Assembly: GCA_963716175.1 (NCBI GenBank)
Contig: OY970296.1
Span: 2,240,001 to 2,304,000 of the forward strand
Direction of reading: 5' to 3'
From: an uncultured Armatimonadetes bacterium
Lineage (GTDB): Bacteria > Armatimonadota > Hebobacteria > Hebobacterales > Hebobacteraceae
DNA length: 64,000 nt
Part shown: positions 11,957-58,042 of the stretch, in pieces
Layout: every line of letters starts with the position of its first letter
How positions within the stretch are numbered: position 1 is the first letter of the stretch
Translations under genes and position numbers: made by a program
The notes under the pieces: model-generated
Databases searched by the model: none
The model's input: the letters and a program-made list of their open reading frames with translations, nothing else
Told to the model about the DNA's origin: nothing

Positions 11957-12004
11957 GCGACGGCCCCGCGGTTCCCTTAGCTCCGGCTGGCGGCGCTCGG
12001 GGGT
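11957..12004 (+). repeat. Dispersed hairpin repeat, copy 1 (very degenerate)
   Basis: GCGACGGCCCCG...CTCCGGCT...CTCGG matches the family's left end and core. Confidence 0.5.
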
Positions 12005-12036
12005 ACCCACGAGCTGAGGCAGGAGGGGGAGACAGA

Positions 12037-14454
12037 ATGGCTGTTGCCAAGCCACGCTCGTTTCCGCTGTACGATAGGGCCCGCCAGGCTGGTGTCCTGG
12101 ACGACGGCAGCGCTCTTATCGTTGCACCAACAGCGACGGGCAAGAGCTACATCGGCCGCATGATTCTTCGCCAAGCAGTGGGGAACCACGAGCCGGGCAC
12201 CCATGCCTATCTTGTCCCGTATCGCGCCCTGGCGGCCGAGATGTATGACTCCTTCCAGCATGAGTTAGCGGCTGACCAGCTGGAGGCTCGCGTACGGGTG
12301 GCGACAGGAGACTACACAGACCCCATCCAGCCTCAGGAGACCGATATCCTGATCGCCACCTACGAACGATTCGCGGCGCTGATGCGCATGCCAGAGCTAG
12401 CGCTTGGGCGGGTGGTGGTAGATGAGGTCCATTTGGTGGCCGATCAGACGCGCGGGCCGGTGCTGGAGGGGCTGCTGGCGCGCATGGAGAGCCACAAGCG
12501 GCCACGCTCGTTGTGCGCGCTTTCGGCGGTGGTAGCGAATCCGGAGGCGTTGGGCCAATGGCTAGGGGTGCCGGTGTTGCTCGGCACCGCGGAGGACCGC
12601 GCGGTGGCGGTGGACATGCACTGCGAGGAGACCGATGACCTGGATACCGCCCTAGGTCAGGAAGTGCAGTCTGTGCTGCAGCACGGAGATCAGGCCGTCA
12701 TCTTCTGTCACTCTAAGGCCTCGTCGCAGCGCCTGGCGCGTGACTTGCAGCAGGTCGTGGCAGGATACCTCACAGATGACGACAGAGGGGAACTGCGCGA
12801 TCTGGTGGCGCGGGTTTCCGAGGATGATGAAGACGCAAAAGACCTGCACGCATTGCTATCAGGTGGCGTCGCCTTCCACCATGCCGGACTCTCCCGCGAG
12901 TCACGTGCGGCGGTAGAGAGCGCCTTTCGCGAGCGACACCTCAAGGTGATCGCGTGCACGCCCACGCTCGCCGCAGGGGTGAATCTTCCAGCGCGCCTAG
13001 TGGTTGTGCGCGACGTGTTCCGCACAGAGTTCACCCGCGGTTTCCCGCAGGCGGTGATGCTGTCGACGGGGGAGCTGCTCAACATGCTGGGCCGAGCGGG
13101 ACGCCCAGGGCAGGTCGAGAGCGGACGCGGTGTGGCCCTCGTCAAGAACGGTGATCTGGAGAAGGACGAACTGCGGGAGCTTCAGGTGGCGATCCGGGAA
13201 GGCCGCGGCAATCCCGTGACGAGCCGTCTGCCAGACTCCTTCGACGCGCTGATGCGGTTCCTGCTCTCCGTGGCGGCCGACCGTGGCGAGGCAACGCTGG
13301 CGGACCTGGCGGCGGCGGTGAAGGGCACGCTCTGGTTCCGGGAAGACCCGGACGAGATCGTCTTCGACCGGCCCTTCGAGGCCGATATCATGGAGGACAT
13401 CGAGTCGTACGCTCGCGTCACGCCGGACATGCGCGTCGAACGAGCCTGGCCCGTAGCGGACGGAGTGGCGGGGTCCGTGGCCTCTGGCGACAAACTCTAC
13501 AACTTCAGCCTCCGTTTCAGCGGAGAGGACTGCACGTGCCCGGCGAAAGCCAAGTGGCAGCGGCGCAACATCTGCAAGCACCTCGCCTGCGCTATCCACA
13601 ACCTGCTGTTCGGCACCGGCGTCGATGCGGAAGTGCGCAGCCGCGCCATCTATGCCTCCGCGCACCGGTTCCGGCGGACGCTCAATCTGGGCACGAAGAT
13701 CCAGCAGGCAGTGCGACTGCTCGACGCATGGAAACTGCTTGAGCCCGTGCCGGGCGCCTACCAGGCAACGCCGGTCGGCGCGCTCGCGGCGAACTCGAGC
13801 CTCGACTTGCTTCTCATACGTGTCGCTGATGAACGCATCCGCGGGTGCCGCCGCGTGCCGACGCCGAAGGAGGTGGCAGGCTGGATCGTGGAGGATTACT
13901 TCGGCGATACTGCCAAACGCGAGCGTTGGGAGCGAGCAGTGGAGCCCTGGGTCGACGAGGTGGAGGAGCGGCGCATCAAGCTCCCCGAAAAGTACCGCGG
14001 CGACTTTGAGCGGGGTCTGGAGCAGCTCGGCCAAGTGGCCTCGCTCTATGGCGAGATCGCAGAGAGCCTGGGTAAGCCGGAGGTGGCCCAGGTGTGCCGG
14101 CTCACCCGCGGCTGTCTCCAGTATGGCGTGGCGCTAGAGCTGATCCCGCTGGCCGCGCTGCGCATCCCGCAACTCGGTCGCGCACGCTGCCGCTTCCTCT
14201 ACGACGACCGCGGCATTCGTGGCCTAGAGGAGCTGGCACACGCCGATCCGCAGGCGCTGGCGGGCCCGCGTGCCCCTGCCAGCATTGCGCAACAGTGGGT
14301 GGAGACGGCGCGAGGCATGTGGCAAGCGCGTGGGCATGTGCTCAGGCTGCCAGAGGAAGACCGGGCCAGGGGCATCGACGACTTCCTCTCGCAGTTCCAG
14401 GTCGATCAGCTCTCGCTCTTCGGCGAGAACGGCGTGATGGGTGAGGCGGCGTGA
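12037..14454 (+). CDS. Ski2/Hel308-like SF2 helicase with inserted SWIM zinc finger and C-terminal HhH
   Basis: APTATGKS, VVDEVH, ALSA, FHHAGL, TPTLAAGVNLP, MLGRAGRP; CTCP...CKHLAC (SWIM); RIPQLGRARCRFLY (HhH). Confidence 0.92.
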   Translation: MAVAKPRSFPLYDRARQAGVLDDGSALIVAPTATGKSYIGRMILRQAVGNHEPGTHAYLVPYRALAAEMYDSFQHELAADQLEARVRVATGDYTDPIQPQETDILIATYERFAALMRMPELALGRVVVDEVHLVADQTRGPVLEGLLARMESHKRPRSLCALSAVVANPEALGQWLGVPVLLGTAEDRAVAVDMHCEETDDLDTALGQEVQSVLQHGDQAVIFCHSKASSQRLARDLQQVVAGYLTDDDRGELRDLVARVSEDDEDAKDLHALLSGGVAFHHAGLSRESRAAVESAFRERHLKVIACTPTLAAGVNLPARLVVVRDVFRTEFTRGFPQAVMLSTGELLNMLGRAGRPGQVESGRGVALVKNGDLEKDELRELQVAIREGRGNPVTSRLPDSFDALMRFLLSVAADRGEATLADLAAAVKGTLWFREDPDEIVFDRPFEADIMEDIESYARVTPDMRVERAWPVADGVAGSVASGDKLYNFSLRFSGEDCTCPAKAKWQRRNICKHLACAIHNLLFGTGVDAEVRSRAIYASAHRFRRTLNLGTKIQQAVRLLDAWKLLEPVPGAYQATPVGALAANSSLDLLLIRVADERIRGCRRVPTPKEVAGWIVEDYFGDTAKRERWERAVEPWVDEVEERRIKLPEKYRGDFERGLEQLGQVASLYGEIAESLGKPEVAQVCRLTRGCLQYGVALELIPLAALRIPQLGRARCRFLYDDRGIRGLEELAHADPQALAGPRAPASIAQQWVETARGMWQARGHVLRLPEEDRARGIDDFLSQFQVDQLSLFGENGVMGEAA

Positions 14455-17275
14455 TGAACCTGACGGAGGCCCAGCAGAGGATCATCGGCATCTCAGCTCC
14501 GGCGCTGCAGATCCTCGCTTGTGCCGGCTCCGGGAAAACTGAAGTGCTGGCCCGGCGAACGGTGCGGTACCTCCTTGAAGGTACGCCTCCAGAGACCATC
14601 GTCGCCTTCACCTTCACCGAGAAGGCGGCGGGCGAACTCAAGGACCGCATCGAGCGCCGCGCCGCCGAAGCCGATGTCCGCTTCGCGGCGCTGCCGCCCT
14701 CGGCTTCGGGGATGTTCGTCGGGACTATCCACAGCTATTGCCTGCGAGTGCTCCAGCAGTATGGCGGCCACTACGAGGCCTACGAGCCGCTCACGGAAGA
14801 GCGGGAATGGGCGCTGCTGCATCGGTTCGCGCGGCGGCTGGGCATGGTCGATCTGATGGAGCAGGCCTGGCCGGGCGCGCCGGTCTCGGTGCGGCGGGCG
14901 GTGGAAGTGTTCCGGCGGAGCATGGCCGTCGTCTGCAATGAACGCATCTCACCCGAAGTCCTGGAACAGCGCGCACCAGGGCTCGCAGAGGTGATGCGTC
15001 GCTACCGCGAGCTGCTTTCCGGGATGCGACTTCTCTCCTTCGATGAGATGGTCGACTCGGCCTGCGAGGAGCTAAGGCCGGGGGAAGACTCAGGGCAGTG
15101 CTCGATGGGAAGCTGCGGGAGGTGCTGGTGGATGAGTACCAGGACTTGAACCGAGCGCAGGAGGAGCTGCTGCAGCGCTTCCTGGAGATGGGCGCGCGGC
15201 TGACTGTGGTCGGCGATGATGACCAGGCGATCTACCAGTGGCGCGGTGGAGATGTCTCGCTGTTCCTCCGGTTCGTCGAGCGCTACGATTCGGCCCAGCG
15301 GCATGAGCTAGCAGAAAACCATCGCAGCTTGCCTGCCATCGTGCACACCGCGGCCGGCTTCGCGGAGAGTATTCATGAGCGAGTATGCAAGGCGATGTCC
15401 CCGGCGCGTGCGGAGGAATGCCCTGCGGTGGAGATGATGGCGGCCGGCACCGTGGAGGCGGAAGCCGAAGCCCTAACGCGGCGCATCTGCACACTCATCC
15501 AGAACGGCCATCGACCTGCCGACATCGTTGCGCTCTTCCGCTCTGTGCGCACGTCCGCGCGGCCGTTCGTGGCGGCGCTAAGGCGAGCGGGTGTGAGGGT
15601 GGCGTTAGTCGGAAAGCTCTCGCTGCTGGATCGCCCTGAGATGGCGCTGCTCGCGCGTATCTTCGTGCTCTGGGTCGGCGGCACATGGTACCCCGACGAG
15701 GCGCAGGAGGTGGTCACGCCAGAGCGGCTCGCCAGGGACACTGCAGACCTCACCGGCGTCAGCGATGTGGACGCCACACGCATCGTCGGCAAGCTAGAGC
15801 GGATGGGCGAGGAGCTACGGGCGACCGAGGTTCGCGACCTGGTCGGCACGTACCTGACGATGCTCCAGCTCATCGGCCTTCCGATCGATGAACCAGAGCG
15901 CGCTCGACAGGAGCAGGGCCTGGGACGCCTCTCGGAGCTGCTGGCGGACTTCGAGCACGCGCAGCGCCGACTCATACCGGCGGGGCTGTTCGCACAACCT
16001 CAGCCGTCTGCGGCTGAGGAGACTGCTGAGGACAATCTGCTGCTGGCTGAGGCCGAGGCAGCACCGTCCATTCGTATGGAGCGGACGCGCGGCGAGGTGT
16101 TCCTCGTGCGCCTGCGAGTCTTCCTGGAGGAGTTCGCGGCGCAAGCAGCGGAAGAGGCGCCCGAGCGCCCGACGCTCGACGAAGGCGCGGTGAACGTAAT
16201 GACCGTTCACCAGTCCAAGGGACTGGAGTTCCCCATTGTCTTCGTCCCGTGCCTGGTGGAGCGGCGCTTCCCATCCGCCCGGATGGGGCAGGCGCAACGC
16301 TGGCACATACCCGACGACCTCTTCGACAGAGCGCGCTATGAGGGCCGCGAGGACGACGAGCGGCGCCTCCTCTACGTGGCTATGACTCGGGCCCAGGAGC
16401 TGCTGGTGCTGAGCTGGTTCACCCAGTACGCGAGCGGGCCGGCAACGCCCTCACGCTTCCTGCAGGATCTCATGCCTGCGCGACAGCACTTGGCGCATCC
16501 TGGCATGTGCACCCCAACTGTCCGTCCTGGCCCCGAGGGTGGCGAGGCCGTCATCGACACCGACTTCGCAGCCCTCCTTACCTTCAGCGAATGTCCCTAC
16601 CGATACCGTCTTCGCTATGTGTGCGGGTTCCAGCCGCCCATCGATCCAGCCCTGGGCTTCGGCCGTCTCTTGCATCACACAGTGGCCGAGCTTGCTCGCC
16701 TGGGGCAGCGCGGCCGCGCACCGACAACTGAGGATGTGGACGAGATCCTGCAGAGGTCGTTCTACCTGCCGTTCGCCGGGCTCGGCTCGCGGGAGCGCCT
16801 CTACCGGTCGGCCCGGCAACGCCTGAGGAAGTACGTCCGGAGATACGGCGAGGAACTCGTGCGCACAGCCGAGCCGGAGCGGCGCTTCGAGGTTCCATTG
16901 GAGGCCGCTCGTGTCCGCGGTCGCATCGATCTGGTCTTGAGCGCGGACGGGGGCAGTCGAGAGGTGGAGCTGATCGATTTCAAGACGGCCGTCAACCGTC
17001 CCCCAAGCGAGCATCACAAGAACCAGCTCCGCGTCTACGCGGCTGCGATGCGGACGCTGGGTTACCGGCCAGTGCGTCTCTGGATTCATGACCTTGACAG
17101 CGATGAAAGCCGGCGCGTGCTTGTCGAAGAAGACGAGAGGCAGGCCGCGCAATTCCGAGGCCTGATGCAGGGGTGGATCAACGGCGTCCGCGGGGGCCAG
17201 TTCCCCCGCGTCAAGGATCGGGCAGCTTGCAGGGGCTGCGACTTCACGCGCCTCTGCCCTCGACCGTTCGAGTAG
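14454..17275 (+). CDS. UvrD/Rep-like SF1 helicase fused to PD-(D/E)XK nuclease; single-base frameshift at the G-run 15080-15084
   Basis: ACAGSGKT, FTFTEKAA, GTIHS in the first frame; VDEYQD, VVGDDDQAIYQWRG, ENHRS, MTVHQSKGLEF, YVAMTRA, GRIDL...IDFKT and Cys motif CPY...CRGCDFTRLC in the second; one added G joins them (RPGGRLRAVLDGK). Confidence 0.9.
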
Positions 17276-18712: not shown

Positions 18713-18927
18713 CCGGATCGGCTGTGTGATCGCTCTGCGGTGACATTGCCCGCAACGTCTCCAGCAGGGCATACCCTCTTGCTTCAGATCACTGCCTCCT
18801 CTGGGGTGAGGCGTTGCCCAAGGAGACGGAGGGTGGCCGACCGAGTTGAGAGCAGGTGTTCGTCCCAGCGTCAGCACGTACAACGCGGCTTGGCAGTTGC
18901 ACTGTTGCACGACGTCCAAGCGCATCG

Positions 18928-18977
18928 CCGATGCCCCGGCCACCCTCCGACTCCGGCTACCCCCTCGGCTGGGAGTG
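18928..18977 (+). repeat. Dispersed hairpin repeat, copy 2 (core)
   Basis: CCCCGGCCACCCTCCGACTCCGGCTACCCCCTCGGCTGGGAGT. Confidence 0.85.
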
Positions 18978-19157
18978 GTGCGGACCGGATACACTTGCAA
19001 GAGCAGCAGGGAAGCCCTGGGCTCAGCAGAAGCGAAGCCCCCGTCTGGGCACGGGTGACCGCGGCGTGTGGTCTGCCTTGGCGCGGGATTCCAGCCCGGC
19101 ATCAGGAGGGGCTTCCTCCCAGCAATCAGTGCTCAGGAGAATGAGGAGGGTGTACAG

Positions 19158-19649
19158 ATGAAAGGGCTACGTTCGGTCGCGTTGGTGCTTGGGCTGGCCG
19201 CCGCTTTGGCGGCCCCGGCCCTGTCCGGTCAGCGGGGTGGTGGCGGCCGTCGGGGCGGAGGTGGTGGACAGGGCGACAGCATGAAGGCCCTGCTCGACCG
19301 CCTTGGGTTCACCGAGCAGGAGCTGGCCGCGGTGCAGAAGAGCATGGAGGCCAAGTCCAAGGCTCGTCAGACACTCGAGGACGAACTCGGTAAGCTGCGC
19401 GAGGTCGCCGGCAATGACAAGTCCACCGACCAGCAGCTGCGTGGGGCCATCGACAGCTACACCAAGGCCCTGGCGCGATACCGGGAGACAGTGCGGACCG
19501 AGGATCGCTCCCTCTCAGGCCGCCTCTCAGTAAGGAGCCGGGCGCGCTGCCTAGCAGCCGGGGCCCTTGACAACGGACTTGGCATGGGTGGTGGAGGGCG
19601 CGGCGGTGGAGGCGGAAGGCGTGAAGGTGGGGGCGGACGGCGGCCATAG
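19158..19649 (+). CDS. Secreted helical protein with Gly/Arg-rich ends
   Basis: GAGGAGG SD, signal peptide MKGLRSVALVLGLAAALAAPALS, coiled helical core. Confidence 0.75.
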   Translation: MKGLRSVALVLGLAAALAAPALSGQRGGGGRRGGGGGQGDSMKALLDRLGFTEQELAAVQKSMEAKSKARQTLEDELGKLREVAGNDKSTDQQLRGAIDSYTKALARYRETVRTEDRSLSGRLSVRSRARCLAAGALDNGLGMGGGGRGGGGGRREGGGGRRP

Positions 19650-19775
19650 CCCACTCCTCCAAGAGCCAGCCTGAAGGCGACTGCCGAGCCGACGGGGTGA
19701 ACGACTGGAGAGCTGTGGCAGCCGGTCGCGGGCGCCAGCGGTTCTGCCCCCAGTGCCCGGTTGCACCTGTCGGCC

Positions 19776-19855
19776 GCCCGTGAAGCCGGTCCCGGCCGCC
19801 CCCAACTCCGGTTACCCCCTCGGCTTGGAGTCGTTGACTCCGGGTTTCGTCGCGG
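19776..19855 (+). repeat. Dispersed hairpin repeat, copy 3
   Basis: CCCGGCC...AACTCCGGTTACCCCCTCGGCTTGGAGTC...CCGGGTTTCGTCGC; shares the left flank GCCCGTGAAGCCGG with copy 5. Confidence 0.85.
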
Positions 19856-19864
19856 ATGCGTCCG

Positions 19865-20761
19865 TCAGAGCTTCCACCTGTCTCGCTCAATCAACGGGGT
19901 CTTGAAGCTAGCTGAGATGCGCCCGGTTCTCTCGAGATGATCCAGGCAGGCGCGCACGCACCCGCGACCGACGCAGATGGCGAGATGCCGGAATCGGTCT
20001 AGCAGGAACTGATTGTAGCTTGGCTGTTCACCCTCGGATTCCGAGCCCGCCCAGAAGGGCGAGAAGCGCGGGTCGCGCCCCGCGTGCACGCGTCCACATG
20101 CCTCGGCGTCCAGGGGCGCGTGGGAGAACTCACGTCCCTCAATTGCGAATCGGACCTCCCGGCAGGTGCCGATGGCGTGGGCCTCGCACTCGTTGACGCA
20201 GGCCAGGCAACCGTCGCAGATCTGTTCCCTGGAAAGCGGGGTCGGGCAAAGCTGGGCATCCGTCAGGACCGCAAACACACGCTGCCGCGGGCCGTACTGG
20301 GGGGTCAGCAAGAGCTTCGAATGGCCCAACTCGCCCAACCCAGCCGCAACCCCGGCCACCCGCAGAGACATCATGCCATCGGGCCCTGCCGGCTGGTCAG
20401 CCCGCACCCGTCTGCCGACGTGCGACATGAAGGGATTGTGGACCGGCACGCTGGTGAAACCAGATTCCTCCAGGAGCAGGACTACCTCTCGCAGCACTCG
20501 GGGCGCGATGACCTCATTGAGGTACCAGTACGAGTCGCAATTGTACGCCTGCCAGTAGGTGCCCTCCTCCACCGCCTTGAGTGTGCCCCGCGGCTGCCGC
20601 ATGGCCACCGCCACCACCGTTTCCGTCTGGGGGAAGATGGTGTGTGGGTGCAACTCGGGTGGCGCGCCCGCGAAGCGAGAGATGGGGGCAAAGCCAACAA
20701 GGTCAGCGCCAGCGGCGGCGGCGACATTCCGCACCTCGTCGGTCAGGCTCTGCACGGTCAT
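19865..20761 (-). CDS. Epoxyqueuosine reductase (QueG)-like Fe-S protein
   Basis: GADLVGFAP, AGVAAGLGELG...LLLTPQYGPRQR...VLTDA, CDGCLACVNEC and CVGRGCVRAC. Confidence 0.8.
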   Translation of the reverse strand: MTVQSLTDEVRNVAAAAGADLVGFAPISRFAGAPPELHPHTIFPQTETVVAVAMRQPRGTLKAVEEGTYWQAYNCDSYWYLNEVIAPRVLREVVLLLEESGFTSVPVHNPFMSHVGRRVRADQPAGPDGMMSLRVAGVAAGLGELGHSKLLLTPQYGPRQRVFAVLTDAQLCPTPLSREQICDGCLACVNECEAHAIGTCREVRFAIEGREFSHAPLDAEACGRVHAGRDPRFSPFWAGSESEGEQPSYNQFLLDRFRHLAICVGRGCVRACLDHLERTGRISASFKTPLIERDRWKL

Positions 20762-20898
20762 CCGGAAGCCTCCGTGGTGAGTCTGCGTCTTCCTGGATTC
20801 TCGCGCGGCCAGGCCCAACTGTCAAAAGACCGTCTGCGTATGGTGTCCGCCATGCTATCAGAAGGAGTGCCTGCTCCTGCCGGAAAAGGGCTATGCCC

Positions 20899-21146
20899 AA
20901 CGGCCCCGGCACCCCGACTCCGGCTGCCCCCTCCACGCGGGGTCACGCTCTGGGGTTCCATCGCGCCTGGGCACAGCAGCCGCGCCACGGCGGCGATCAC
21001 CGGCAGCCCCCCAGCCGAATCCTGCGTCGCTGCCCGTCTGTATGTTCTATCCCTCGCGGAACAGAGGTGCCAGTGAGTGCCGAGAATACCACGAGAGAGG
21101 GTGTGCGAGCGTCCTGAAAGCCAGATGAGTCTCTGGACAGCGCGGG
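20899..21146 (+). repeat. Dispersed repeat, copy 4 (long form, ~250 bp)
   Basis: Hairpin core plus GCCGCGCCACGGCGGCGATCACCGGCAG, GAGAATACCACGAGA and GATGAGTCTCTGGACAGCGCGG. Confidence 0.88.
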
Positions 21147-21275
21147 CATACCGCCGCGTTGGTTGGTCTCGTCGGGCCGCACTCAGCGAGAGCGGGATGA
21201 GGTAACGGCCCTCTCCACCCTCGGGGCCTGGGCGCGCGCCCCGTGGGCAACGCGGTACAGGCTTCCGGGGGGGTA

Positions 21276-21536
21276 TCAGTAGGTACTCGTCCAGCTACTC
21301 GAGTCGGGCTCGGGCGGAGGAAGATCGCGCGGGGCAGCGACGTGGACCTGGGAAACCAACTCCGTGACGCTCCGATCCTGGTCAGGGGAGCGCCCGCCCA
21401 GATCCTTCTCTGTGGGTTCTTCTTCGAGCTCCTTGAGACGGCAGCAGCAACACAGAAGCCGACCGTCGTTCGCCTCCGCGAGCTCGTAATCGGGGACTTG
21501 CTTACCGCACTCCCAGCACTCGGTTCCGGCGCTCAT
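21276..21536 (-). CDS. Small Cys-rich (zinc-ribbon-like) hypothetical protein
   Basis: CWEC...CCCCR; GAGGAAGG SD; perfect extended -10 upstream. Confidence 0.55.
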   Translation of the reverse strand: MSAGTECWECGKQVPDYELAEANDGRLLCCCCRLKELEEEPTEKDLGGRSPDQDRSVTELVSQVHVAAPRDLPPPEPDSSSWTSTY

Positions 21537-21608
21537 GGCCCTTCCTCAAGCTGCTGGCAACACGGGTGGGAGAAGGCTGCAGTAGTGCTGCGGCGTAGGC
21601 TAGTCTGC

Positions 21609-21617
21609 ATTATACCA
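21609..21617 (-). promoter_or_regulatory. Extended -10 promoter element
   Basis: TGGTATAAT on the minus strand, about 70 bp upstream of the ORF starting at 21536. Confidence 0.55.
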
Positions 21618-21698
21618 CGGCGTGCCTGAGACTGCCACGGGCTAGGAGAAGAACTTGCCGGCGAGCCCGCTGAGGTGCATCCACGTGTCTTTCCAACT

Positions 21699-21753
21699 GC
21701 CCGTGAAGCCGGCCCCGGCCACCCCCTCGGCTGGAGTCACTGTCCGGGGTTCT
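21699..21753 (+). repeat. Dispersed hairpin repeat, copy 5 (internally deleted)
   Basis: GCCCGTGAAGCCGGCCCCGGCC-ACCCCCTCGGCTGGAGTCACTGTCCGGGGTT; lacks the GACTCCGGCT arm. Confidence 0.8.
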
Positions 21754-22921
21754 AGGACTGCACGCGCTCCGTAATCCGCAGCACGCGATCGAAGCTCCCC
21801 TCCGCCGGCATGGTGTCGGCGATCCCGAGGATCAGGCGGGTGCAGCCGCGCGCCAGGGAGACGGCCTCGTCGACGAGGCGCTCGAAGTCGGCCTCGCTCA
21901 TCGCGCCCTCTATCATGGCAACAGAGGGGATTCCGCCCCAGATGGTGGTGCCGGGGAGTTCGCCGATCAACCGTGAGAGCGAGAGCTTCGTCATCGGCGC
22001 CGGGCAGAGCGAATCGGCGATGTCGAAGCCGGCGCGGCGGTAAAGCGGTAGCAGGCCCGCGTTCTCCCCGTCGGTGTGGGTGAGCAAGAGCCTGCCGTGT
22101 GCGTGGGCGAGGTCCGCCGCCTTTCGGAGCCATGGCAGAATGTGCCTCTCGAAAAACGGCGGATAGGTGATGGTGTCGTCGTAGTTGCCGCCCCAGAAGA
22201 TGATCTCCGAGGGGCTCGCCACCAGCGCCTGCAGGGTGGCGTCGAACCAGGGCGACATGCTTTCCGCCAACACGCTCATCTCGTCAGGCCGGTCGTGCAG
22301 CTCCAAGAAGAAATCCGTCATGGGGATCAGATCGCGCATGATCTGGTGCATTGGCGAAGCCGCGCCGTTGCCGAATGCCACCGCGACCCCGTCCTCTCCA
22401 ACCCAGTCGCGCCAGGCGCGGTAGCCCGCGTCGGCCAGCGCCGTCTCTAGGTTCTCGAAGATGTACCTCAGTACTCGATAGTCGTCGGGCCTCTTCAGGA
22501 CGTGTTCATCCACCCAGGCGATCGTGACACCGGACCGTTTCATCTCGTCGGTGTAGGTGAAACGGCAGGTCACGTCGCCCACGGGTGTGTGATAGGTCAC
22601 GCGGGTGGCGCCGCCGTCGCGGTGGACCTCGCGCTCGACATTGTACATACGCGTCTCGAAGGGCATTTCCGTGAGCCGGTAGATGCCCAGGCCGCGGTCA
22701 ACGACATCCTCGGGCCAATCTCCCAGGAAGTTCGGCACCACCGCGTGATAGCCGACGCCAAGCGACCTCGTGATCTCCCGCAGAGATAGGCCGCGATAGG
22801 CCTGCGGCAGAGTGCCTGACCGGGACCGCGCGTTGTACCAGAGATCGAGCCGCGGCACCCAGAGAACGCGATCAGAAGGCTGGCCGCGGCAGGCGGCGAG
22901 GATTCGCTGCCTATGGGTCAT
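21752..22921 (-). CDS. Uroporphyrinogen decarboxylase / MtaA-CmuA family protein
   Basis: MTHRQRILAACRGQPSDRV, TYHTPVG, PPFFERHILP, HTDGE, IWGGIPS, ILGIADTMP. Confidence 0.85.
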   Translation of the reverse strand: MTHRQRILAACRGQPSDRVLWVPRLDLWYNARSRSGTLPQAYRGLSLREITRSLGVGYHAVVPNFLGDWPEDVVDRGLGIYRLTEMPFETRMYNVEREVHRDGGATRVTYHTPVGDVTCRFTYTDEMKRSGVTIAWVDEHVLKRPDDYRVLRYIFENLETALADAGYRAWRDWVGEDGVAVAFGNGAASPMHQIMRDLIPMTDFFLELHDRPDEMSVLAESMSPWFDATLQALVASPSEIIFWGGNYDDTITYPPFFERHILPWLRKAADLAHAHGRLLLTHTDGENAGLLPLYRRAGFDIADSLCPAPMTKLSLSRLIGELPGTTIWGGIPSVAMIEGAMSEADFERLVDEAVSLARGCTRLILGIADTMPAEGSFDRVLRITERVQS

Positions 22922-22970
22922 GCTGTCTGCTTCGTTCTCCTGGGCGCGCCTGCCTGCCGAACCCTCCTGG

Positions 22971-23233
22971 GCGACGGCCCCGGCCATCCCCCGACTCCGG
23001 CTACCGCCTCAGTTTGGAGTCAACGCTCGGGGTTCAGTCGCGTGTGGGATGTGACCAGCCGGGGCACAATAGGGGCCGGAGCGCTCGAGGCCCTACCCGG
23101 TCCAGTCCGGGATCGACATCCTCGCCTATCCTCTGTGCCTCCCGGAACAGGGGTATCAGTGGATGCAGAGAATACCACGACTGAGGCTGCAGGTGGCGTC
23201 CTGGGAGCCGGATGAGTTGCTGGACGGCGCGGG
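22971..23233 (+). repeat. Dispersed repeat, copy 6 (long form)
   Basis: GCGACGGCCCCGG...GACTCCGGCTACC...TGGAGTC...CGGGGTTCAGTCGC plus GAGAATACCACGA and GCCGGATGAGTTGCTGGAC. Confidence 0.88.
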
Positions 23234-23478
23234 ACGCGCATGGCGGCGAGATCATCGTCGATAGCACCGCGGACGTGGGCACGAGATTCCGCATCAGATT
23301 GCCTCTGTCTCGGCCCGCGCGCTGACGTTCCCAGCGGGCGCGAACAGCTAGCGGACGCTCGCGAAGACAGAATCTGGCTGCAGCATGCAGAAGCTACTGC
23401 CTGGAAGGTTCGATGCCGGGCTTGGTCACCTACCGTTCGTGGTTAGGTGCAGGGCTAGACTCAGTAGGAGGGCTCCAA

Positions 23479-24879: not shown

Positions 24880-24898
24880 GGCATACGGGGAGACAGAA

Positions 24899-27923: not shown

Positions 27924-28050
27924 AACGAAGAAGCGACGGCTAAGAGGTGCGAGAGAATACGCCCATCCTTGCACTACGGTTGGGATGCAATCCGCGGACA
28001 CTGCGCCTTACTGCTGTCTTGGTGTGACTTCGCACGGCGGTTCCAGTGCC

Positions 28051-43048: not shown

Positions 43049-43171
43049 TCTAGTCCCGTAGTGTACCGGAACTGATCTGAGGGTTTCTTCGGCAGGTGCA
43101 GAGCGGGACCTGCCCTCTCGCGTGGTTGGTTGATGGGGTTTGAGATGGCTCGCGCGTCCCCGAAGCTAAGC

Positions 43172-43420: not shown

Positions 43421-43425
43421 AGGGC

Positions 43426-44445: not shown

Positions 44446-45182
44446 GATGCCAACAGATCGCCCGCGTAACAGTGGCTACTGCGGTCCATGCACGGCGAGC
44501 CACGATTTCCGTCTTGAGCGCCGACGTATGTGCCGGCCAACTGGCGTGGAACTGGTGTCATCGGGCCACAAGTGGCCTCTTGACGAACGCGCAGCAAATC
44601 CGTGACGAGCCTTCGCCGGGATGCACACTCGCCCCCGTCGACAGGGACAGCGGGGCGAGGCCACAGAGGGCACGTCTCGGTCAACACGCATAGCTTTGCT
44701 GCCGAAGCGCTGCCGCAGGCCGTTTCGATCCCAGGTCCTTTTGGTAGTGGTGGAGGAAACTATACTCAGCCGCTCATGGCTCTCTGAGCCACCCGGAGAG
44801 GATGAAGAGGGCGGGCGACGGTGGTAGTTGGGTGGCGGACGAGCGGGATGAGATCGTTTCGGTCGTGGGTGCGATCAGCCCGCTATTCAGTCTGATCCGG
44901 GCGCAGCGTTTTCGAGCCCAGGAGTGCTGCCCGCACCTGGTGCGGAGTGGACTGCACCCCTGGGCCTGGACAGAATGGGGCGCGATGTAGCACCCTCTGA
45001 TGAGGCGGGAAAGAGAGGGCCTCATCATGGCAGTGACACGAAGGCCGCGTACCCGGGGCACCCAGCCCTGCACCCGCCCCTCTCTTGTCACCCCCGGTTG
45101 CTCACCGAGTCCAGACACTCCCGGAGCCCATGTGCCAGGGACGGCAGCGGCGACGGCCTCTCCGCCGCCGCCTTCCATACCC

Positions 45183-45258
45183 TGGTGCCGGGTCCCAGAG
45201 TCGAACTGGGGACACCCGGATTTTCAGTCCAGCGCTCTACCACCTGAGCTAACCCGGC
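45183..45258 (-). tRNA. trnF: tRNA-Phe (GAA)
   Basis: 76 nt; acceptor stem GCCGGGT/ACCCGGC; D arm GCTC/GAGC; anticodon loop CTGAAAA; GTTCGA T loop; encoded CCA. Confidence 0.96.
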
Positions 45259-45393
45259 ACGCGAATCTCAGTCCTCAGTTGGGTAGGTTCGAACTGCCCC
45301 TCGGGAGCCAAGACGGTTCTTCACCCACCTCCGCTCCCCATCTTGTCCCAGGACGCGTGGGATTGCCCGTAGAGAGGCACTTTGTGTGACACC

Positions 45394-45759
45394 TCAGCCC
45401 ACTTCCTGGGGGTGCCGGCGACGCGCCAATCGCCTCGCCCGCGAGATGCGCTGGCGCACCCGGGCCTTCTCTCGCTTCAGCTCCGCAAGTTCGGCGTCTG
45501 CTGCGGCCTCCTGGTCGGGGTTACCGGCCGGGAATGAGATCAGGACATCGCAGCCCTTGCCTCCGCACAGCCATTGTGCGCGGCCGCCCTCGATGCCCAA
45601 GTAGTACAATCTGCTGCCGCAGCGTGGACATACCGGTGCCCCGCGATGGTCGGGCACGCCGCAGCGCGCGCAGCGCGAGGACCCGAAGAGCGAGCACCGC
45701 AGCAGGCACCGTGCGCGTTCGCCCGCAGAGGCAAGTCTCGAACGCTTGGCGCCGATCAT
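45394..45759 (-). CDS. Small multi-Cys zinc-finger hypothetical protein
   Basis: CLC, CLLRC, CARC, CPRC, CGGKGC; start overlaps the upstream stop (TGATG). Confidence 0.55.
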   Translation of the reverse strand: MIGAKRSRLASAGERARCLLRCSLFGSSRCARCGVPDHRGAPVCPRCGSRLYYLGIEGGRAQWLCGGKGCDVLISFPAGNPDQEAAADAELAELKREKARVRQRISRARRLARRRHPQEVG

Positions 45760-47072
45760 CAGTTCCCGTCCCCAGGCCCCGAGTGGTCGACGTCGTCGCG
45801 GCTCGGCGCCGTTTCCCCTTGAGCAGCCTTGTACGCTTCGATCTGCTCGAAGTAGTCGCGTCCGGAATCGAGCAGCCAGGGCAGGCCTCCGTCCGCCTCC
45901 GGGTCTCCGTCCCCAGGTGCGGGTTCATAGTTCGCCAGGTGAGGGACTCTGATCGACCTCAGCTCCTGGCGCATGCCCTCCAGCGCCGCGATCTGCTCCC
46001 TGTAGCGGCCAGTGATGGCCTTTACCCGTCGCTCTATGGCTAGTCGTAACGCGGCCTCCTTCTCGCGGGCCTCCTCGGCCGCGTCCTCGTCCCAGAACTT
46101 GCCCAGAGCGTCGGACAGGATCCTGGCAAGCTCGCCGGGGTGAAGTGCCTCGAGCGCGTCGAGCTCCACCGCCCCCGCGCCATGGCGCTCCTCGAACTTC
46201 GCGCCGCGTCGCTCCGTCTCTTTGATCGGACTCCGGGGAAGGTCGTACTCGCACACCTGCGCTGCCGTTAGCACCAGGGGACGAAGCTTCACCTCGAGAC
46301 CGCTCCCGTGGACCATCCACTCGATCTTCCGGGCCACCGCCCGCGGCATCGACTGCCCGGCGGGATCGAAGTCCGAGACGTAGAAGATGCGCGCGGGCTT
46401 GTTCGCCTGGCGCAGTCGTTGGGAGAGCTCATGGACGGCGGTGATGCTCATCTCGCCCTCGCCGGTCACGAAGTTCGCACAATACTCCTCGCAGACAGGA
46501 AGCAGCACGTCGTCCATGGTGGACTTCTCCACCCACACCTCCAGGTAATAAGGCTGCACCATCGCCCGGTTGAAGCCACTCACGAATCGGTCGGATTCCC
46601 ATCGGCCGTTGATCCATACCGACGGATCGGAAAGCTCAGGGACGTTGACTTCGAACCGTGCCTGCGGTTCCCGCTGATAGTGGGTGAACAGGTGCGGGGC
46701 CGGGTTCTTGTGGTCGGCGATGTCGGCGATGCTCACCAGGCCTAGGTAGCGCGCCTGTTTGCTAGCCTGGCACAGGTTCTTCCAGGCCTCCTCCGTGTTC
46801 TCGTACGGCTTGCCATTACTCTGAGCCAGGCCGGTCTGAGAAACACACCAGTAGTGCATCCGGCGCAGATGCACGCCGCTCAAGTACCCCGCTCTCCGCC
46901 ACACTTCGGCGAACCACTCCGCCTGTGCCCGGCCGGTCGGGGTGCCAGCGTAGAACGGGTCGTTCTGAGGCGCCAGCGCTAGGACCGCTCTGACCGAGCA
47001 CCCGCGCTCCTTCGCCACCAGCTTCAGCGTCTCGTAGTCGAGACGCACCGCTGTCTGCACATCTGTCGTCAT
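45759..47072 (-). CDS. Topoisomerase VI-A/JetD-like Toprim domain protein of mobile elements
   Basis: HLRRMHY winged-helix motif; EVWVEKS; YVSDFDPAG; VELDALEA; GGAAGGAG SD. Confidence 0.78.
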   Translation of the reverse strand: MTTDVQTAVRLDYETLKLVAKERGCSVRAVLALAPQNDPFYAGTPTGRAQAEWFAEVWRRAGYLSGVHLRRMHYWCVSQTGLAQSNGKPYENTEEAWKNLCQASKQARYLGLVSIADIADHKNPAPHLFTHYQREPQARFEVNVPELSDPSVWINGRWESDRFVSGFNRAMVQPYYLEVWVEKSTMDDVLLPVCEEYCANFVTGEGEMSITAVHELSQRLRQANKPARIFYVSDFDPAGQSMPRAVARKIEWMVHGSGLEVKLRPLVLTAAQVCEYDLPRSPIKETERRGAKFEERHGAGAVELDALEALHPGELARILSDALGKFWDEDAAEEAREKEAALRLAIERRVKAITGRYREQIAALEGMRQELRSIRVPHLANYEPAPGDGDPEADGGLPWLLDSGRDYFEQIEAYKAAQGETAPSRDDVDHSGPGDGN

Positions 47073-52995: not shown

Positions 52996-54006
52996 TCATC
53001 TGCTCATTGCTCTGTCAAGCACCCCCCACAAATGCTTGGTGTGCGGCACCATATCCTGGCGAAAGTACCACCAGAAGAAGCCCTTGATATAGCGAGGATG
53101 ATCTATCTGCATGAGGTAGAACTCATCGATCAGAGCGGCCTTCTCGGCGTCGGTGCCTTCAATCCCCAGCTCCCCAAAGCCCAACTTGGAGTTGGGAAAG
53201 ACGTTTCCGATCCTGGTGAACTCACTCTTCCAATCGGGCTTGAACTGCGGAGAGTTCCCCGGGTAGTAGCTGAACAGGACGTAGTCAACGCCACGCTTCA
53301 TCCGCTCCGGGATGTAGGTCCGTACCCAGGAGTACATCTCGTATTGAGGAGCCGCCGCGCATGGGGGAGAAACCGCGCAATCCTGACCCTCATTGAACAC
53401 CAAGGTCAGCACCGTCTTTCCGCCAGCGGCTTTGACGATATCATAGGCGGCCGAGACCTTGGCCGAAACATCGCCTACTGGGCCGAGCCAGTTACCATTG
53501 ACTTCGTTGCCGACTTCCCACAGGTCAACTCTGTCAGCGAAAGCGTTCAAGTACTCAGTGAATACCGCCTTGTACTGATCGAGGGTGTAGTCCTCCACGT
53601 AGCTGGAATCAGCGGGTTGGCCGAGGATATAGGCGACAGCGTGAATCTGGTCGACGGCCTGCCGGTAGTCGGCCGCAGGCACGCCCCTGTCGAAGACGAT
53701 CCTGACGGTCACCTTCTTTGAGAATCTGCGGAGGGCGGTGACAACTGCCGACAGGTCGGTGGTGCTGTCAACAGTGACGCCGTAGATCGGAGCGGGGACT
53801 TCACCAATCGCCGAACATGCTGCCGGGGGCGAAGGTGTTGGTGTTGACCGCACAGCCGTCGGCGCTGGCGCAAGCCCTGTCTTACCCGGGCTGATCCCAG
53901 CGGCTTCCGGATAGGCGACGCACAAGCGGGCGACCAACCCAAAGGCAACTACCACCAGTCCAAGAACGACAGGTGACGTCTTTAGGCCCACTGCCCACCT
54001 CCGCAA
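52996..54006 (-). CDS. Secreted putative glycoside hydrolase (clan A-like TIM barrel)
   Basis: Signal/TM segment, Pro/Thr linker, WEVGNEVNG acid/base motif, FGELG nucleophile-like motif. Confidence 0.65.
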   Translation of the reverse strand: MRRWAVGLKTSPVVLGLVVVAFGLVARLCVAYPEAAGISPGKTGLAPAPTAVRSTPTPSPPAACSAIGEVPAPIYGVTVDSTTDLSAVVTALRRFSKKVTVRIVFDRGVPAADYRQAVDQIHAVAYILGQPADSSYVEDYTLDQYKAVFTEYLNAFADRVDLWEVGNEVNGNWLGPVGDVSAKVSAAYDIVKAAGGKTVLTLVFNEGQDCAVSPPCAAAPQYEMYSWVRTYIPERMKRGVDYVLFSYYPGNSPQFKPDWKSEFTRIGNVFPNSKLGFGELGIEGTDAEKAALIDEFYLMQIDHPRYIKGFFWWYFRQDMVPHTKHLWGVLDRAMSR

Positions 54007-54197
54007 GAGATAGCGATCACAGTGTCGGTTCCGTATGCGCGGCCGGCAGTTCGCAGCTCGGCGGCCACGGGACCAAGGCCTGGGGCGCGAGCGGCTGAAA
54101 GCTCAGCACACTGCGTGGCCGCACACTACGGTAGTGTTTTCGATGGCGGTCCGCCAGCACCTGCGGTTCCAGCGCCTGCCACAGCCAAGGCCTCGGG

Positions 54198-54270
54198 CCG
54201 ACGGCCCCCTGCAACCCTCGACTCCGGCTTCCCCTTCGGCATGCAGGCACTATGCGGGGTTCCGTCGCGC
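54198..54270 (+). repeat. Dispersed hairpin repeat, copy 11
   Basis: CGACGGCCCC...GACTCCGGCTTCCCCTTCGGC...GGGGTTCCGTCG. Confidence 0.82.
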
Positions 54271-54397
54271 ATGGGGCAGTGCCAGGGGGCAAGGCTAATC
54301 GGGGCAGGTCAGGCCGGGAATCGTCCATCGCCGGCAGGACCATCGCCACCCGCTCACGTATAGGGCGGGATGGCAACCTTCAGGAGGCAAGACGACC

Positions 54398-55189
54398 GTG
54401 GCGACTACAGGAGACTTCACTTTCTCGGTGTTCACGAAGCCGTGGAAGACGCCGATCCGCGAGCTCGGCGCGTTTGTGAAAGGGCTGGGATTCGACGCCA
54501 TCGAGCTGCCCGTGCGGCCTGGCTACCAGGTGCTGCCGGAGAACGTCGAGCGCGACCTGCCTAAGGCCGCCAGGCAGTTAGCTGACTGCGGCGTGGCTAT
54601 CGCCAGCATCGCCGGGCCCACCGACGAGAAGACCATCGCCGCCTGCGCCGAGGCCGGCGTGCCGATCATCCGCGTCATGGTCCGCATCGGCGAAGAGGGC
54701 TACATGGCGACGGACGCGAGAACCCAGGCCGAGTACGAGGCCCTCGTCCCCCTGCTCGACAGGTACAAGGTTCAGATCGGGGTGCAGAATCACTGCGACG
54801 AGTTCGTCGCCAACGCGATTGGCTTGCTTCATCTCATGGAGCGCTTCGACCCCAAGCACGTTGGCGCGGTCTGGGATCCGGCCCACTGCGCGCTCAATGG
54901 TGAGGACCCGGAGCTGGCCGTTGATATCCTCTGGTCCCACCTCTGCATGGTGAACCTGAAGAATGCCTTCTGGCAGCGGAGGACCGGCCCCGAGGCCGAG
55001 GTCGCCAAATGGCAGGTCTACTGGACCACCGGAAGACAGGGGCTTGCCTCCTGGGCGCGTGTCGGCGCCGAGCTGAAGCGGCGGAAGTGGCGTGGCGTCC
55101 TCTGCCTCACCGCCGAGTACAGTGACGAGCCGTCGGTCAACCGCCTGATCGCCGACGATATCGCCTTCGCCAAATCGCTGTTCACCTGA
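54398..55189 (+). CDS. Sugar phosphate isomerase/epimerase (xylose isomerase-like TIM barrel)
   Basis: GLGFDAIEL, QNH, WDPAH, NLKN, LTAEY; CAGGAGG SD. Confidence 0.85.
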   Translation: MATTGDFTFSVFTKPWKTPIRELGAFVKGLGFDAIELPVRPGYQVLPENVERDLPKAARQLADCGVAIASIAGPTDEKTIAACAEAGVPIIRVMVRIGEEGYMATDARTQAEYEALVPLLDRYKVQIGVQNHCDEFVANAIGLLHLMERFDPKHVGAVWDPAHCALNGEDPELAVDILWSHLCMVNLKNAFWQRRTGPEAEVAKWQVYWTTGRQGLASWARVGAELKRRKWRGVLCLTAEYSDEPSVNRLIADDIAFAKSLFT

Positions 55190-55263
55190 GGATGCCGCGC
55201 TAGCCGAGAACTCATCTGCGCGCCCGAAACGGGACTGACGCCTGCAACGAAGAGGCCCTGTGC

Positions 55264-55335
55264 GCGACGGCCCGAGCAACCCTCCGACTCCGGCTGCCCT
55301 CCTCGGCTTGGCATCAGTGTTCGGGGTTCCGTCGC
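55264..55335 (+). repeat. Dispersed hairpin repeat, copy 12
   Basis: GCGACGGCCCGAGCA...GACTCCGGCT...TGTTCGGGGTTCCGTCGC. Confidence 0.85.
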
Positions 55336-55685
55336 GGGTGCCGGAGATCCTGAAGCTGACCGGCAGCGGCGCTGACTGTATGCTGGGGCCCATGTGTCGT
55401 GTCCGCCCTGCCTGCAGCAGGACCACCTGCGTGATCAGGCAGATCGAGGTTCCGGCCGCTTCCGCGTGGATTCACTCCGGGCGAAATGGAGTGCCCACCC
55501 TACGACAGAGGATGTCCCCGGAGCAAGGCAGGAGCGGTTCCACGGCGAAGTGGCCGGCGCACGTGGAAGCGATCGACCATCTTGCTGGGGGCACGTGACC
55601 CGGGCTGGCAATCCCAGTCCTGGTGGAGTCGCCAGCGCCCGGGTGTGGCGTCGGAGCCGGCAATCTTCGACGATGGAGAGGCGAC

Positions 55686-56804: not shown

Positions 56805-57854
56805 CTATCCGCTCAGCGCCCGGTAGATCTCTCCCGGGCCCAAGGTGTCGGGGTAATGAGGCCGGAGGAACTTGCGCACTTGCCAGCACAGGTGGCACTT
56901 CTGCACGTACTGCTCCCGGCGATAGCCCAAGCCCTCCGCGAGATGCAAGAGGCCGACCGGGCCCTGCTCGCGCAGCGCCGTGATGATCGGGTTATCCGTG
57001 GCGAACCCCGCCGCCATCAGCTCCCCAAACGGGGTGTGCTCCACGTTCCCGAGGATGACACCGCAGCAGGTTTGCACATTGCCGTACGGGTCGAGGTGGA
57101 TCTCCCACATGGTCTGCGGAGAGAACTCCCAGGCACAGGACATGCCCGGAGGCGCGTCGTGCCACATGTGATCCCTCACGAGATCGGCGATCGGTCGCGC
57201 CGGCAGGTACTGGGCCAGCACCTCCCCGGCCCTGCCCACCATTCGAGGCGGCGATCCCCGCACGTATTCAGTCAGCCGAGCCGGATCGCGGCCGACCCGC
57301 TGCATCCCGAGCAACTGCTCTTTGGTGAAGGGCTCAGCTGCGACATTTCGCTGCCCGAACAGCTCAGCCGCGGCCTCATAGCACCGCAGGTACCGGTCCA
57401 CCGGATAGAACGCCAGGTGAAAGGGGTCGGCGCTGATGTAGAGGCCGCGCACCCCCGCGTCTCGCAGCTCCGTGAGCCGCGCGTGCACCTTCGCCGTATT
57501 CGTGCACCAGGTGGCGTTGGTCTCGATGAAGTGCGGCGCCGCACCGTACCGGGAAGCTCCCCGGCAGATGGCCAGCACTGTCTCGTACTCCAGCATCGCC
57601 TCGCCGCCGGCGATGTGGACGCAGCGATCCGTCGCGCGCAGCATCCGCAGATAGCGGATCCCCCGCTCAACGTCGTGGAACCGCCGAGGATGACGCGGCG
57701 TGCAGCTGAACAGGCAGTGGGGGCAGGCCAGCGTGCAGCGATAGGTCAGCAGCAGGCTCGCCACCGATTTCCGGGTGATGGCGGCGGCTACACCATCTCT
57801 CTCGACTACGGCATCAACGGATCTCCACTGCGCGGACCCGGCTTCCTCAGGCAT
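56805..57854 (-). CDS. Radical SAM protein
   Basis: CTLACPHC, IAGGE, IETNA, ISADPFH, C-terminal Cys cluster. Confidence 0.88.
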   Translation of the reverse strand: MPEEAGSAQWRSVDAVVERDGVAAAITRKSVASLLLTYRCTLACPHCLFSCTPRHPRRFHDVERGIRYLRMLRATDRCVHIAGGEAMLEYETVLAICRGASRYGAAPHFIETNATWCTNTAKVHARLTELRDAGVRGLYISADPFHLAFYPVDRYLRCYEAAAELFGQRNVAAEPFTKEQLLGMQRVGRDPARLTEYVRGSPPRMVGRAGEVLAQYLPARPIADLVRDHMWHDAPPGMSCAWEFSPQTMWEIHLDPYGNVQTCCGVILGNVEHTPFGELMAAGFATDNPIITALREQGPVGLLHLAEGLGYRREQYVQKCHLCWQVRKFLRPHYPDTLGPGEIYRALSG

Positions 57855-57972
57855 GCTTCTTCCCTTCGCCGGGCCCCAGTTCTCTCCTGGACATGTGGGG
57901 GGCGGGTCGCCGGGCAGGTTGCAGGCCTGCGGAGTGGCAACTCGACCAGACGTTCCGCCGCGCGGTCTCATT

Positions 57973-58042
57973 GATCGCCCTCGGCCCTCCTCGACTCCGG
58001 CTACCCCCTGGGCGTGGAGTCGGGGCCTGGGGTTCGGTCGCG
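57973..58042 (+). repeat. Dispersed hairpin repeat, copy 13
   Basis: CGACTCCGGCTACCCCCTGGGCGTGGAGTCG...CCTGGGGTTCGGTCGC. Confidence 0.82.

Follow-up and report, generated by a model that had tools for sequence, protein, structure and literature searches.

The window analyzed here, a stretch of 64,000 nucleotides (nt) from an uncultured bacterium of the Armatimonadota (contig OY970296.1 of assembly GCA_963716175.1, positions 2,240,001 to 2,304,000), contains a family of 13 intergenic hairpin repeats, all of them on the + strand. The family is also present in two other metagenome-assembled genomes (MAGs) of the Armatimonadota. Its copies share a two-tier hairpin with a pairing constraint on the + strand, they are strictly co-oriented within each locus, and half of them continue, at a constant junction, into the front end of an insertion sequence (IS) that resembles the IS481 family. 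Tentatively, and at just short of an even chance, we read these repeats as an Armatimonadota-specific, non-coding and modular family that constitutes a non-autonomous mobile element tied to the IS481-like IS. As half of the copies are fused to the IS front end, we favor a mobile repeat over a gene-cassette system.

A covariance model with the two-tier structure (R1) was built from 11 of the 13 aligned window copies, the incomplete copies 11957 and 21699 being excluded, and the entire window was scanned on both strands with filters off. Twelve matches were obtained at E ≤ 4.6e-4, every one on the + strand. The next-best match reached 15.1 bits (E = 0.26) and the top match on the − strand only 12.3 bits (E = 1.2), so that no full copy was found on the − strand. 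All 13 positions listed in the initial annotation as related + strand copies were thereby confirmed, 12 as full copies by the model and one, 11957, as a left-end fragment. The latter scored 9.3 bits (E = 6) and consists of the left flank and left arm, recognized by blastn (window 11922–11968 against 2773–2819 of MAG locus L002, 83% over 47 nt), while copy 21699 lacks part of the apical region and covers model positions 9–67. The self-comparison of the window gave no inverted match of the family. With up to two mismatches, the short 10-nt seed GACTCCGGCT was found 116 times in the window against 115 expected, and this lack of enrichment means that the evidence resides in the full-length unit.

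Scanning 185,579 species genomes with an apical pattern of 19 specified bases yielded 18 loci. Eleven of these belong to the two Armatimonadota MAGs, eight to JBEKKD01 (one per contig) and three to the OY969415.1 chromosome, and R1 detected complete units in both genomes. The window's own genome is neither of these two, as only the repeats match, and its proteins, 73–80% identical to those of named MAGs, mark it as Armatimonadota. The loci outside the Armatimonadota (L004, L005, L007, L009, L010, L015, and L016) were treated as chance matches; R1 recovered there at most the 25-nt pattern itself (L010 and L016, E = 0.64–0.84). Although each of the 11 Armatimonadota loci was retrieved through one copy, nine of them contain at least two. 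The three exact pattern matches on OY969415.1 lie in two places, two of them only 10.4 kb apart, for which we calculate a chance of about 0.01. In Rfam, the whole window gave two tRNA matches at the gathering threshold and none on the repeats, and a permissive search at E ≤ 5 over 18800–23400, 39600–43600, and L014 5600–5950 also returned nothing on them. The plasmid collection held no near match to window positions 27000–47000, and the long unit found there just two short, chance-like matches in Streptomyces. [quoted passage not shown] The hairpin family is apparently lineage-restricted and undescribed.

Conservation had been described as decaying rightwards from a sharp left edge. This was borne out in part only: conserved left-hand modules are combined with two discrete right-hand forms. 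Six window copies have the long form with an IS-derived piece, and the others are short or partial. In the long form, the hairpin is followed on its right by a stretch of about 190 nt that copies 20895, 22969, 27666, 32475, 39840, and 43169 and four MAG copies have in common. Read on the − strand, this segment comprises the left terminus of the IS, a TGnTATTCT extended −10-like element, the conserved TGGTATTCT, a GGGAGG ribosome site, an ATG and about 25 codons. The TGnTATTCT element was read off the alignments; a scan with the sigma-70 consensus left the promoter-like site unflagged for lack of a −35 match. A genuine peptide gene was considered for the short frame and rejected, as the ATG is kept in seven of the ten long forms and the others contain stops or frame shifts; the frame is the N-terminus of a transposase.

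The position at which hairpin and IS meet is constant. Alignments and tblastn place it immediately after the ARLLC codons in ten long forms, namely the six of the window, L002:1621, L001:411, L011:3202, and the internally deleted L014:211, and the same junction recurs in two further metagenomic open reading frames (ORFs), P0242 and P0243. At L011 4408–4791 the same 5' region, here without a hairpin, runs on into 127 transposase residues. This fragment led to 186 longer homologues, typically of 373 amino acids (aa) and carrying rve_3 and HTH_32 domains; their N-terminal 25 residues match the short frame of the long form. On its outer side the long form ends where the L011 homology stops and where the read-through N-terminal extensions of P0028 and P0054 diverge, and this position is therefore taken as the left end of the IS. 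On the NCBIfam models the transposase P0003 scored 96.9 bits for IS481 (cutoff 224) and 68.8 bits for IS3 (cutoff 160). Judged by these scores, the linked transposase is nearest to the IS481 model and below its curated cutoff, hence IS481-like. An autonomous full-length copy (P0042) is probably present in the window's own genome. Transposase homologues in the plasmid collection all had less than 60% identity (about 40% for the best among the matches listed), too distant for a full-length IS end to be read from them. A non-autonomous element had been one of the options of the initial annotation, and it gains support from this attachment of half of the copies to one end of an IS481-like IS.

The left side is modular as well, with a 16-nt module (A), a module of about 45 nt (B), or neither; module B comes with a compensating change in the outer stem. 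The right side is either empty or holds the IS piece; in four MAG copies it holds a different conserved module, roughly 120 nt long and with TGGTAGAAT on the strand of the hairpin. A terminus GCTGTCC, considered as common to the IS end and the B-type flank, was discarded because it is exact in only 2 of 39 copies. The features of the window are as follows.

11922–12022, + strand: partial copy reduced to an A-type left flank and the left arm (blastn against L002; model 9.3 bits)
18926–19008, + strand: short copy with degenerate right arm (model 60.4 bits)
19783–19863, + strand: short copy with B-type left arm, abutting the 3' end of the − strand gene 19865–20818 (model 61.4 bits)
20895–20974, + strand: long-form hairpin (model 65.6 bits)
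20975–21147, − strand: IS-derived segment with IS left end, TGGTATTCT, ribosome site and transposase codons to about 25, ATG lost (alignments; tblastn with P0003 residues 12–25, 86%; nhmmer IS end 21147–21110)
21699–21752, + strand: truncated B-type copy, abutting the 3' end of the − strand gene 21752–22987 (model 26.9 bits)
22969–23051, + strand: long-form hairpin (model 88.4 bits)
23052–23235, − strand: IS-derived segment, diverged, ATG lost (alignment; nhmmer IS end 23235–23197)
27666–27747, + strand: long-form hairpin (model 83.9 bits)
27748–27923, − strand: IS-derived segment with 23 transposase codons after the ATG at 27818, ORF P0241 (tblastn with P0003 residues 1–23, 65%; alignment; nhmmer)
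32475–32555, + strand: long-form hairpin (model 83.4 bits)
32556–32731, − strand: IS-derived segment, ATG at 32627 (tblastn with P0003 residues 1–23, 70%; nhmmer)
39840–39920, + strand: long-form hairpin, A-type left flank from about 39826 (model 80.9 bits)
39921–40094, − strand: IS-derived segment, ATG at 39991 (tblastn with P0003 residues 1–23, 91%, 39991–39923; nhmmer)
43169–43252, + strand: long-form hairpin (model 86.2 bits)
43253–43426, − strand: IS-derived segment, frame interrupted by stops (tblastn with P0003 residues 13–24, 92%; alignment; nhmmer)
54196–54278, + strand: short copy (model 81.1 bits)
55262–55345, + strand: short copy (model 75.7 bits)
57969–58051, + strand: short copy (model 75.8 bits)

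The hairpin core is imperfect and about 80 nt long; 13 pairs form its outer stem and six its inner one, and its apex is C-rich (GACTCCGGCTACCCCCTCGGCT); the apical 22 nt are near-invariant across the three genomes. The two tiers had been proposed to be kept paired by compensatory changes. The pairs cited for this, TGACGG/CCGTCA at 43172 and CCCGAGCA/TGTTCGGG at 55264, are real but few, and within the 11 aligned copies of the window the covariation is weak: 86.2% of the cells were paired and three double changes were seen, a number equalled in 88 of 500 shuffles. When the MAG loci were included, giving 41 copies aligned to the model, the proposal held, with modest covariation. Here 83.0% of the cells were paired and 33 double-change cells were distributed over 13 of the 19 pairs, while none of 500 shuffles reached any of five measures and slid partners paired in at most 59% of the cells. 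As the alignment is model-fitted and the copies are related, this is support, not proof. Most of the covariation is located in the outer stem and reflects two subfamilies, GACGG/CCGTC (type A) and GACCG/CGGTC (type B).

The + strand had been named as the folding strand on the grounds that its mismatches are mostly G-T, and the larger set bore this out, with 68 G:T cells against 27 A:C cells in the + strand reading. In the paired columns of the best 34 copies, wobble-making transitions were more frequent (53 of 554) than those making A:C (29 of 556, p = 0.006), while in the unpaired columns of the same copies the two types did not differ (44 of 564 and 34 of 500, p = 0.56). Because wobble-making changes are enriched in paired columns only, it is the + strand that carries the pairing constraint and that folds, as DNA or RNA alike. 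Folding energies of single copies were no better than those of shuffled sequences in 8 of 10 folds (Z from −3.17 to +0.87 over all 10), the only exceptions being both strands of copy 32477.

The polarity of the repeats was tallied over 12 sources, the 11 Armatimonadota loci and the window, which together contain 39 matches at E ≤ 1. All 27 further copies lie on the same strand as the first copy of their source, and so do all 24 at E ≤ 0.01. The strand is uniform in the window (12 copies) and in each of L001 (4), L002 (2), L003 (2), L006 (2), L008 (2), L011 (5), L014 (4), L017 (2), and L018 (2). As stated earlier, this co-orientation is kept whatever the direction of the neighboring genes: six isolated − strand genes have a + strand copy at their 5' side, namely 19865–20818 (copy 20895), 21752–22987 (22969), 26650–27684 (27666), 41672–43048 (43169), 52996–54006 (54196), and 56805–58067 (57969), and copies 32475 and 55262 are flanked by + strand genes on both sides. 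Gene calls beside the copies are crude and ORF-based; by these calls, 7 of the 13 window copies lie in divergent gaps. With the same crude caller, copies at the MAG loci tend to follow the majority gene direction (seven of the eight loci without a tie) and usually lie no more than about 130 nt from where a co-oriented gene starts, or directly behind such a gene. GC skew in 4-kb windows tracks gene direction in the window, and over the 8-kb loci it is near zero, with seven positive and five negative values on the repeat strand; it is therefore uninformative on the direction of replication.

Several findings weigh against a mobile element tied to the IS. A second IS end was sought to the left of the hairpins, and the IS-end profile gave one weak nhmmer match (55192–55218, E = 0.064), while a profile of the B-type flank found nothing. 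No excess of target-site duplications over shuffled partners was seen at fixed offsets in 25 short copies, which are about 70–90% alike, so that erosion is possible, and tblastn revealed no C-terminal transposase remnant beside any hairpin. With one IS end, no visible duplications and no C-terminal pieces, the long form is a one-ended chimera that departs from the textbook MITE. When peptides read through the 3' end of the full-length homologues P0054 and P0087 were used in tblastn to look for the hairpin, they gave only noise, and membership of the hairpin in the IS is therefore unsupported. The near-invariant apex suggests a host or protein-binding role over neutral decay. The model-fitted alignment itself favors G:U over A:C, and the repeat copies are not independent of each other. 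On the 4.66-Mb OY969415.1 chromosome the copies at 1.904–1.920 Mb and at 4.408–4.416 Mb are all on the + strand, although the two clusters are about 2.5 Mb apart. By our arithmetic, two points separated by 2.16/2.50 Mb fall on one replichore for no more than some 7% of the possible origin positions, which is weak evidence that a simple flip at origin and terminus is unlikely on this chromosome unless the origin falls in a narrow interval. Finally, a survey of IS orientation (Gómez et al. 2014; PMC3971601) offers a precedent for the proposed link to replication, as replication-linked bias is reported there for many IS families and the IS481 transposase gene tends to lie on the lagging strand; the IS481 bias, however, is weak (p = 0.036, Proteobacteria), while it is absolute in the hairpin repeats.

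If the repeats are mobile nevertheless, the copies may have arisen by transposition or recombination of an IS-linked element. Their polarity may then mean that insertion or retention depends on the strand and is linked to the replication fork, where single-stranded DNA on the lagging-strand template could let the + strand fold, or where the replisome could orient the transposition complex. One possible route to the long form starts with an IS copy into which a hairpin had inserted after codon 25, followed by a deletion between that hairpin and a directly oriented resident one. Such a route would give a constant junction, variable left-hand modules and the loss of the 3' part of the IS. Once in place, the long form may supply an outward promoter to the − strand gene beyond the hairpin.

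Correia/NEMIS, ERIC and RUP elements are examples of IS-derived non-autonomous repeats. Compared with the defining features of MITEs in the available text of a review (PMC10969869), the hairpin repeats are similar in being non-coding, intergenic, multi-copy and shorter than 500 nt (80–270 nt), with only 25 transposase codons. As in MITEs, the ends of an inverted-repeat core fold the unit into a hairpin, one form of the repeat includes sequence of an autonomous IS, and a promoter can be carried to neighboring genes. Unlike MITEs, however, they have a single recognizable IS end, in long forms only, with no inverted copy of it to the left of the hairpin, they show no visible target duplication, and they are GC-rich instead of AT-rich, with modular flanks. 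Absolute local co-orientation is a further difference, and we know of no report of it as a feature of MITEs. The word "orientation" does not occur in the MITE review PMC10969869. The relation to the IS481 family is equally partial: the fused transposase scores best on the IS481 model and has the rve_3 and HTH_32 domains, but with its score below the cutoff it is not a curated member, and the repeats retain only the first 190 nt or so of the IS.

The hairpin itself could be the working part of an undescribed strand-specific DNA transaction, which we consider possible though unlikely. This might be a fork-coupled transposition in which an IS481-like DDE transposase or another partner acts on the folded single strand, or a chromosome-polarity element read by a protein via the C-rich apex; in both cases orientation would be absolute per replichore.

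Several features of the repeats recall the single-stranded DNA substrates of HUH (Y1/Y2) enzymes, which would cut and paste the hairpin on the lagging-strand template and leave the IS481-like piece as a passenger. The strict strand polarity, the pairing constraint on one strand only and the imperfect hairpin with its conserved apex would all be accounted for, and a strong replication-linked bias is reported for the IS200/IS605 and IS91 families in the portion of the survey available (PMC3971601). The ends of IS200/IS605 elements and palindrome-associated transposable elements (PATEs) share with our repeats a one-strand function, imperfect hairpins and an orientation that in our family, too, may be tied to replication. 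However, no HUH or TnpB-like domain (Y1_Tnp, OrfB, TnpB) was found in the 39 gene products of the window or the 52 of the MAG loci, covering about 150 kb, the long form has no second, similar hairpin to close it, and the sole physically linked transposase is of the DDE type (rve_3). We therefore regard an HUH substrate as improbable.

The same enzymes act on repetitive extragenic palindromic (REP) sequences, which with their mosaic arrangements (BIMEs) and the REPINs mobilized by RAYT resemble our family as intergenic, GC-rich, imperfect palindromes combined with flanking motifs, and as elements that may act as single-stranded DNA or RNA. According to Di Nocera et al. (2013; PMC3733652), REPs are 20–40 nt long, have an unpaired GTAG or CGTC tag and occur mostly as inverted pairs, and the units of the CGTC type have stems of 8–9 bp. 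Our unit of about 80 nt, with its two-tier hairpin of about 75 nt, exceeds both. Only 2 of 34 units have a GTAG tag at their 5' foot, so that its absence from the consensus, noted earlier, holds for nearly all of them, and CGTC is found only inside the paired outer stem. Inverted pairs are absent, as the window has no − strand copy and none of the loci has copies on both strands, and no RAYT was seen.

A role in the service of the host was also considered, in which the hairpin is an RNA or DNA signal (an mRNA 5'/3' stabilizer, processing site, insulator or protein-binding site) that first spread and was then selected, the IS link being incidental. The intergenic location fits such a signal, as do the MAG copies that lie mostly near the starts of co-oriented genes or just after genes, the divergent gaps that hold 7 of the 13 window copies, the apical 22 nt conserved in three genomes, the tolerance of wobble pairs on the + strand, and the TGGTAGAAT module that follows the hairpin in four MAG copies. 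Yet in all six window cases with an adjacent − strand gene the copy is antisense to it, no T-run follows the hairpin, Rfam gave no match at E ≤ 5, the downstream genes are functionally unrelated, and single-copy stability stayed at shuffle level in 8 of 10 folds. This account, too, appears improbable to us.

Co-orientation might instead be a by-product of cluster growth. IS26 translocatable units integrate to yield direct repeats, and circles or cointegrates could likewise integrate at a resident copy, by homologous recombination or by an IS26-like reaction driven by a transposase, with later deletions creating the IS junction. Clustering speaks for this, both in the close pair on OY969415.1 and in the 9 of 11 loci with at least two copies, and the constant junction, variable left modules and lost IS 3' part would fit a deletion between direct copies. 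However, neighboring copies resemble one another no more closely than distant ones do: the most similar pair of the window, at 81%, is 27665–27924 and 39839–40097. In addition, the intervening genes are conserved genes of the lineage and not obvious imports, and the clusters examined contain no intact transposase except the unrelated one at L006 2591–3883. Cluster growth alone is thus quite doubtful as the cause.

The genes around the repeats bear on the proposal of the initial annotation that the copies delimit accessory genes or cassettes, and they do not support it, being ordinary chromosomal genes. The sole gene between copies 54198 and 55264 encodes a sugar-phosphate isomerase that is 73–80% identical to proteins of named Armatimonadota MAGs, and the 52 gene products beside the MAG copies are metabolic proteins, transporters and glycosidases, with no recombinase or HUH enzyme among them. 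The only tyrosine recombinase of the window (2359–3840) is Xer-like, with 231.5 bits for XerC and 64.6 bits for the integron integrase TIGR02249 (cutoff 265), and its location is a restriction-modification island at a distance of 8 kb from the first copy; no IntI was found in the window or among the 52 products of the MAG loci. The attC boxes RYYYAAC/GTTRRRY, taken in the consensus quoted by the initial annotation, were absent from all 34 units including 30 nt of flank on each side, as that annotation had stated for the consensus repeat. We therefore judge it very improbable that the repeats are integron-like attC or other recombinase sites bounding mobile cassettes: direct orientation, folding of one strand, a nearby tyrosine recombinase and single genes bracketed by copies (such as 19865–20818, 21752–22987, and 54398–55189) do recall arrays such as the VCRs of Vibrio, with their co-oriented structured repeats between genes, but our repeats lack the R''/R' boxes and IntI, are dispersed over nine contigs of one MAG and two distant places on OY969415.1, and lie 0.8–11 kb apart among ordinary conserved genes of mixed direction with a spacing of their own.

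A comparison of the window with the MAG loci, made in search of empty sites, found no common genes save three distant matches. Some further observations concern the surroundings of the repeats. The TGGTAGAAT module occurs directly after the hairpin at L014 5765–5900, L011 93–218, L018 7764–7832, and L003 ~4610–4750, where the genes downstream of it are unrelated; Rfam has no match to it, and the window lacks it. In both the window (32298–32456) and L014 (5451–5608), some 160 nt of non-coding sequence, 75% alike, directly precede a repeat copy and may be a third left-hand module. The RRM-domain genes L011 303–695 (−) and L012 3592–4092 (−) are each directly followed by a repeat copy with the same flank and represent paralogous loci. 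At 41244–41648 (−) the window contains the C-terminal rve_3 remnant of another IS3/IS481-like transposase, which is unrelated to the one fused to the hairpin repeats and 80.6% identical in DNA to the full-length 430-aa gene at L006 2591–3883 (−) in OY969415.1. The latter was tried as a partner of the repeats and rejected, being unrelated to the N-terminal fragment (E = 0.64).

The − strand block 2359–11519, which has no repeat copy, contains the Xer-like recombinase with an N-terminal extension of about 190 aa, a protein of 996 aa that belongs to no family, and the type III genes res (restriction) and mod (methylase); the 3' end of the recombinase recurs at 1464–1573 as a copy of 110 nt (82.7%). 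The segments 39643–39774 and 45146–45279 are direct duplicates (85%). The second contains an intact tRNA-Phe (45183–45258, −), and the first a decayed partial tRNA (39690–39747) with the same downstream hairpin. They bracket about 5.4 kb of lower GC content (0.607) with an IS remnant and two repeat copies, possibly an old island or else a segmental duplication. On the + strand, two overlapping ORFs (14451–15149 and 15098–17275) together make up an AddA-like protein, a UvrD-type helicase with a PD-(D/E)XK nuclease; the split reflects either a frameshift or a pseudogene. Tandem-like repeats are present within coding genes, with a 120-nt period in a TPR-CHAT gene (36099–37214) and longer internal repeats in the gene of an SLH/NHL surface protein (28299–29694).

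The Armatimonadota are barely studied, and in the hairpin family nature offers a clear example of a dispersed repeat that is physically linked to a DDE-type IS and whose orientation bias is absolute. For DDE families, the orientation survey reports only weak statistical biases (PMC3971601). Several genes have the promoter-like segment of a long form upstream of them. Metagenome assemblies of this lineage are probably also broken by the repeats, as copies in the fragmented MAG are spread across nine small contigs. The strict polarity might stem from a link with replication. If polarity follows replication, the family would be a marker of replichore direction and would help to show how the fork is read by transposition complexes.

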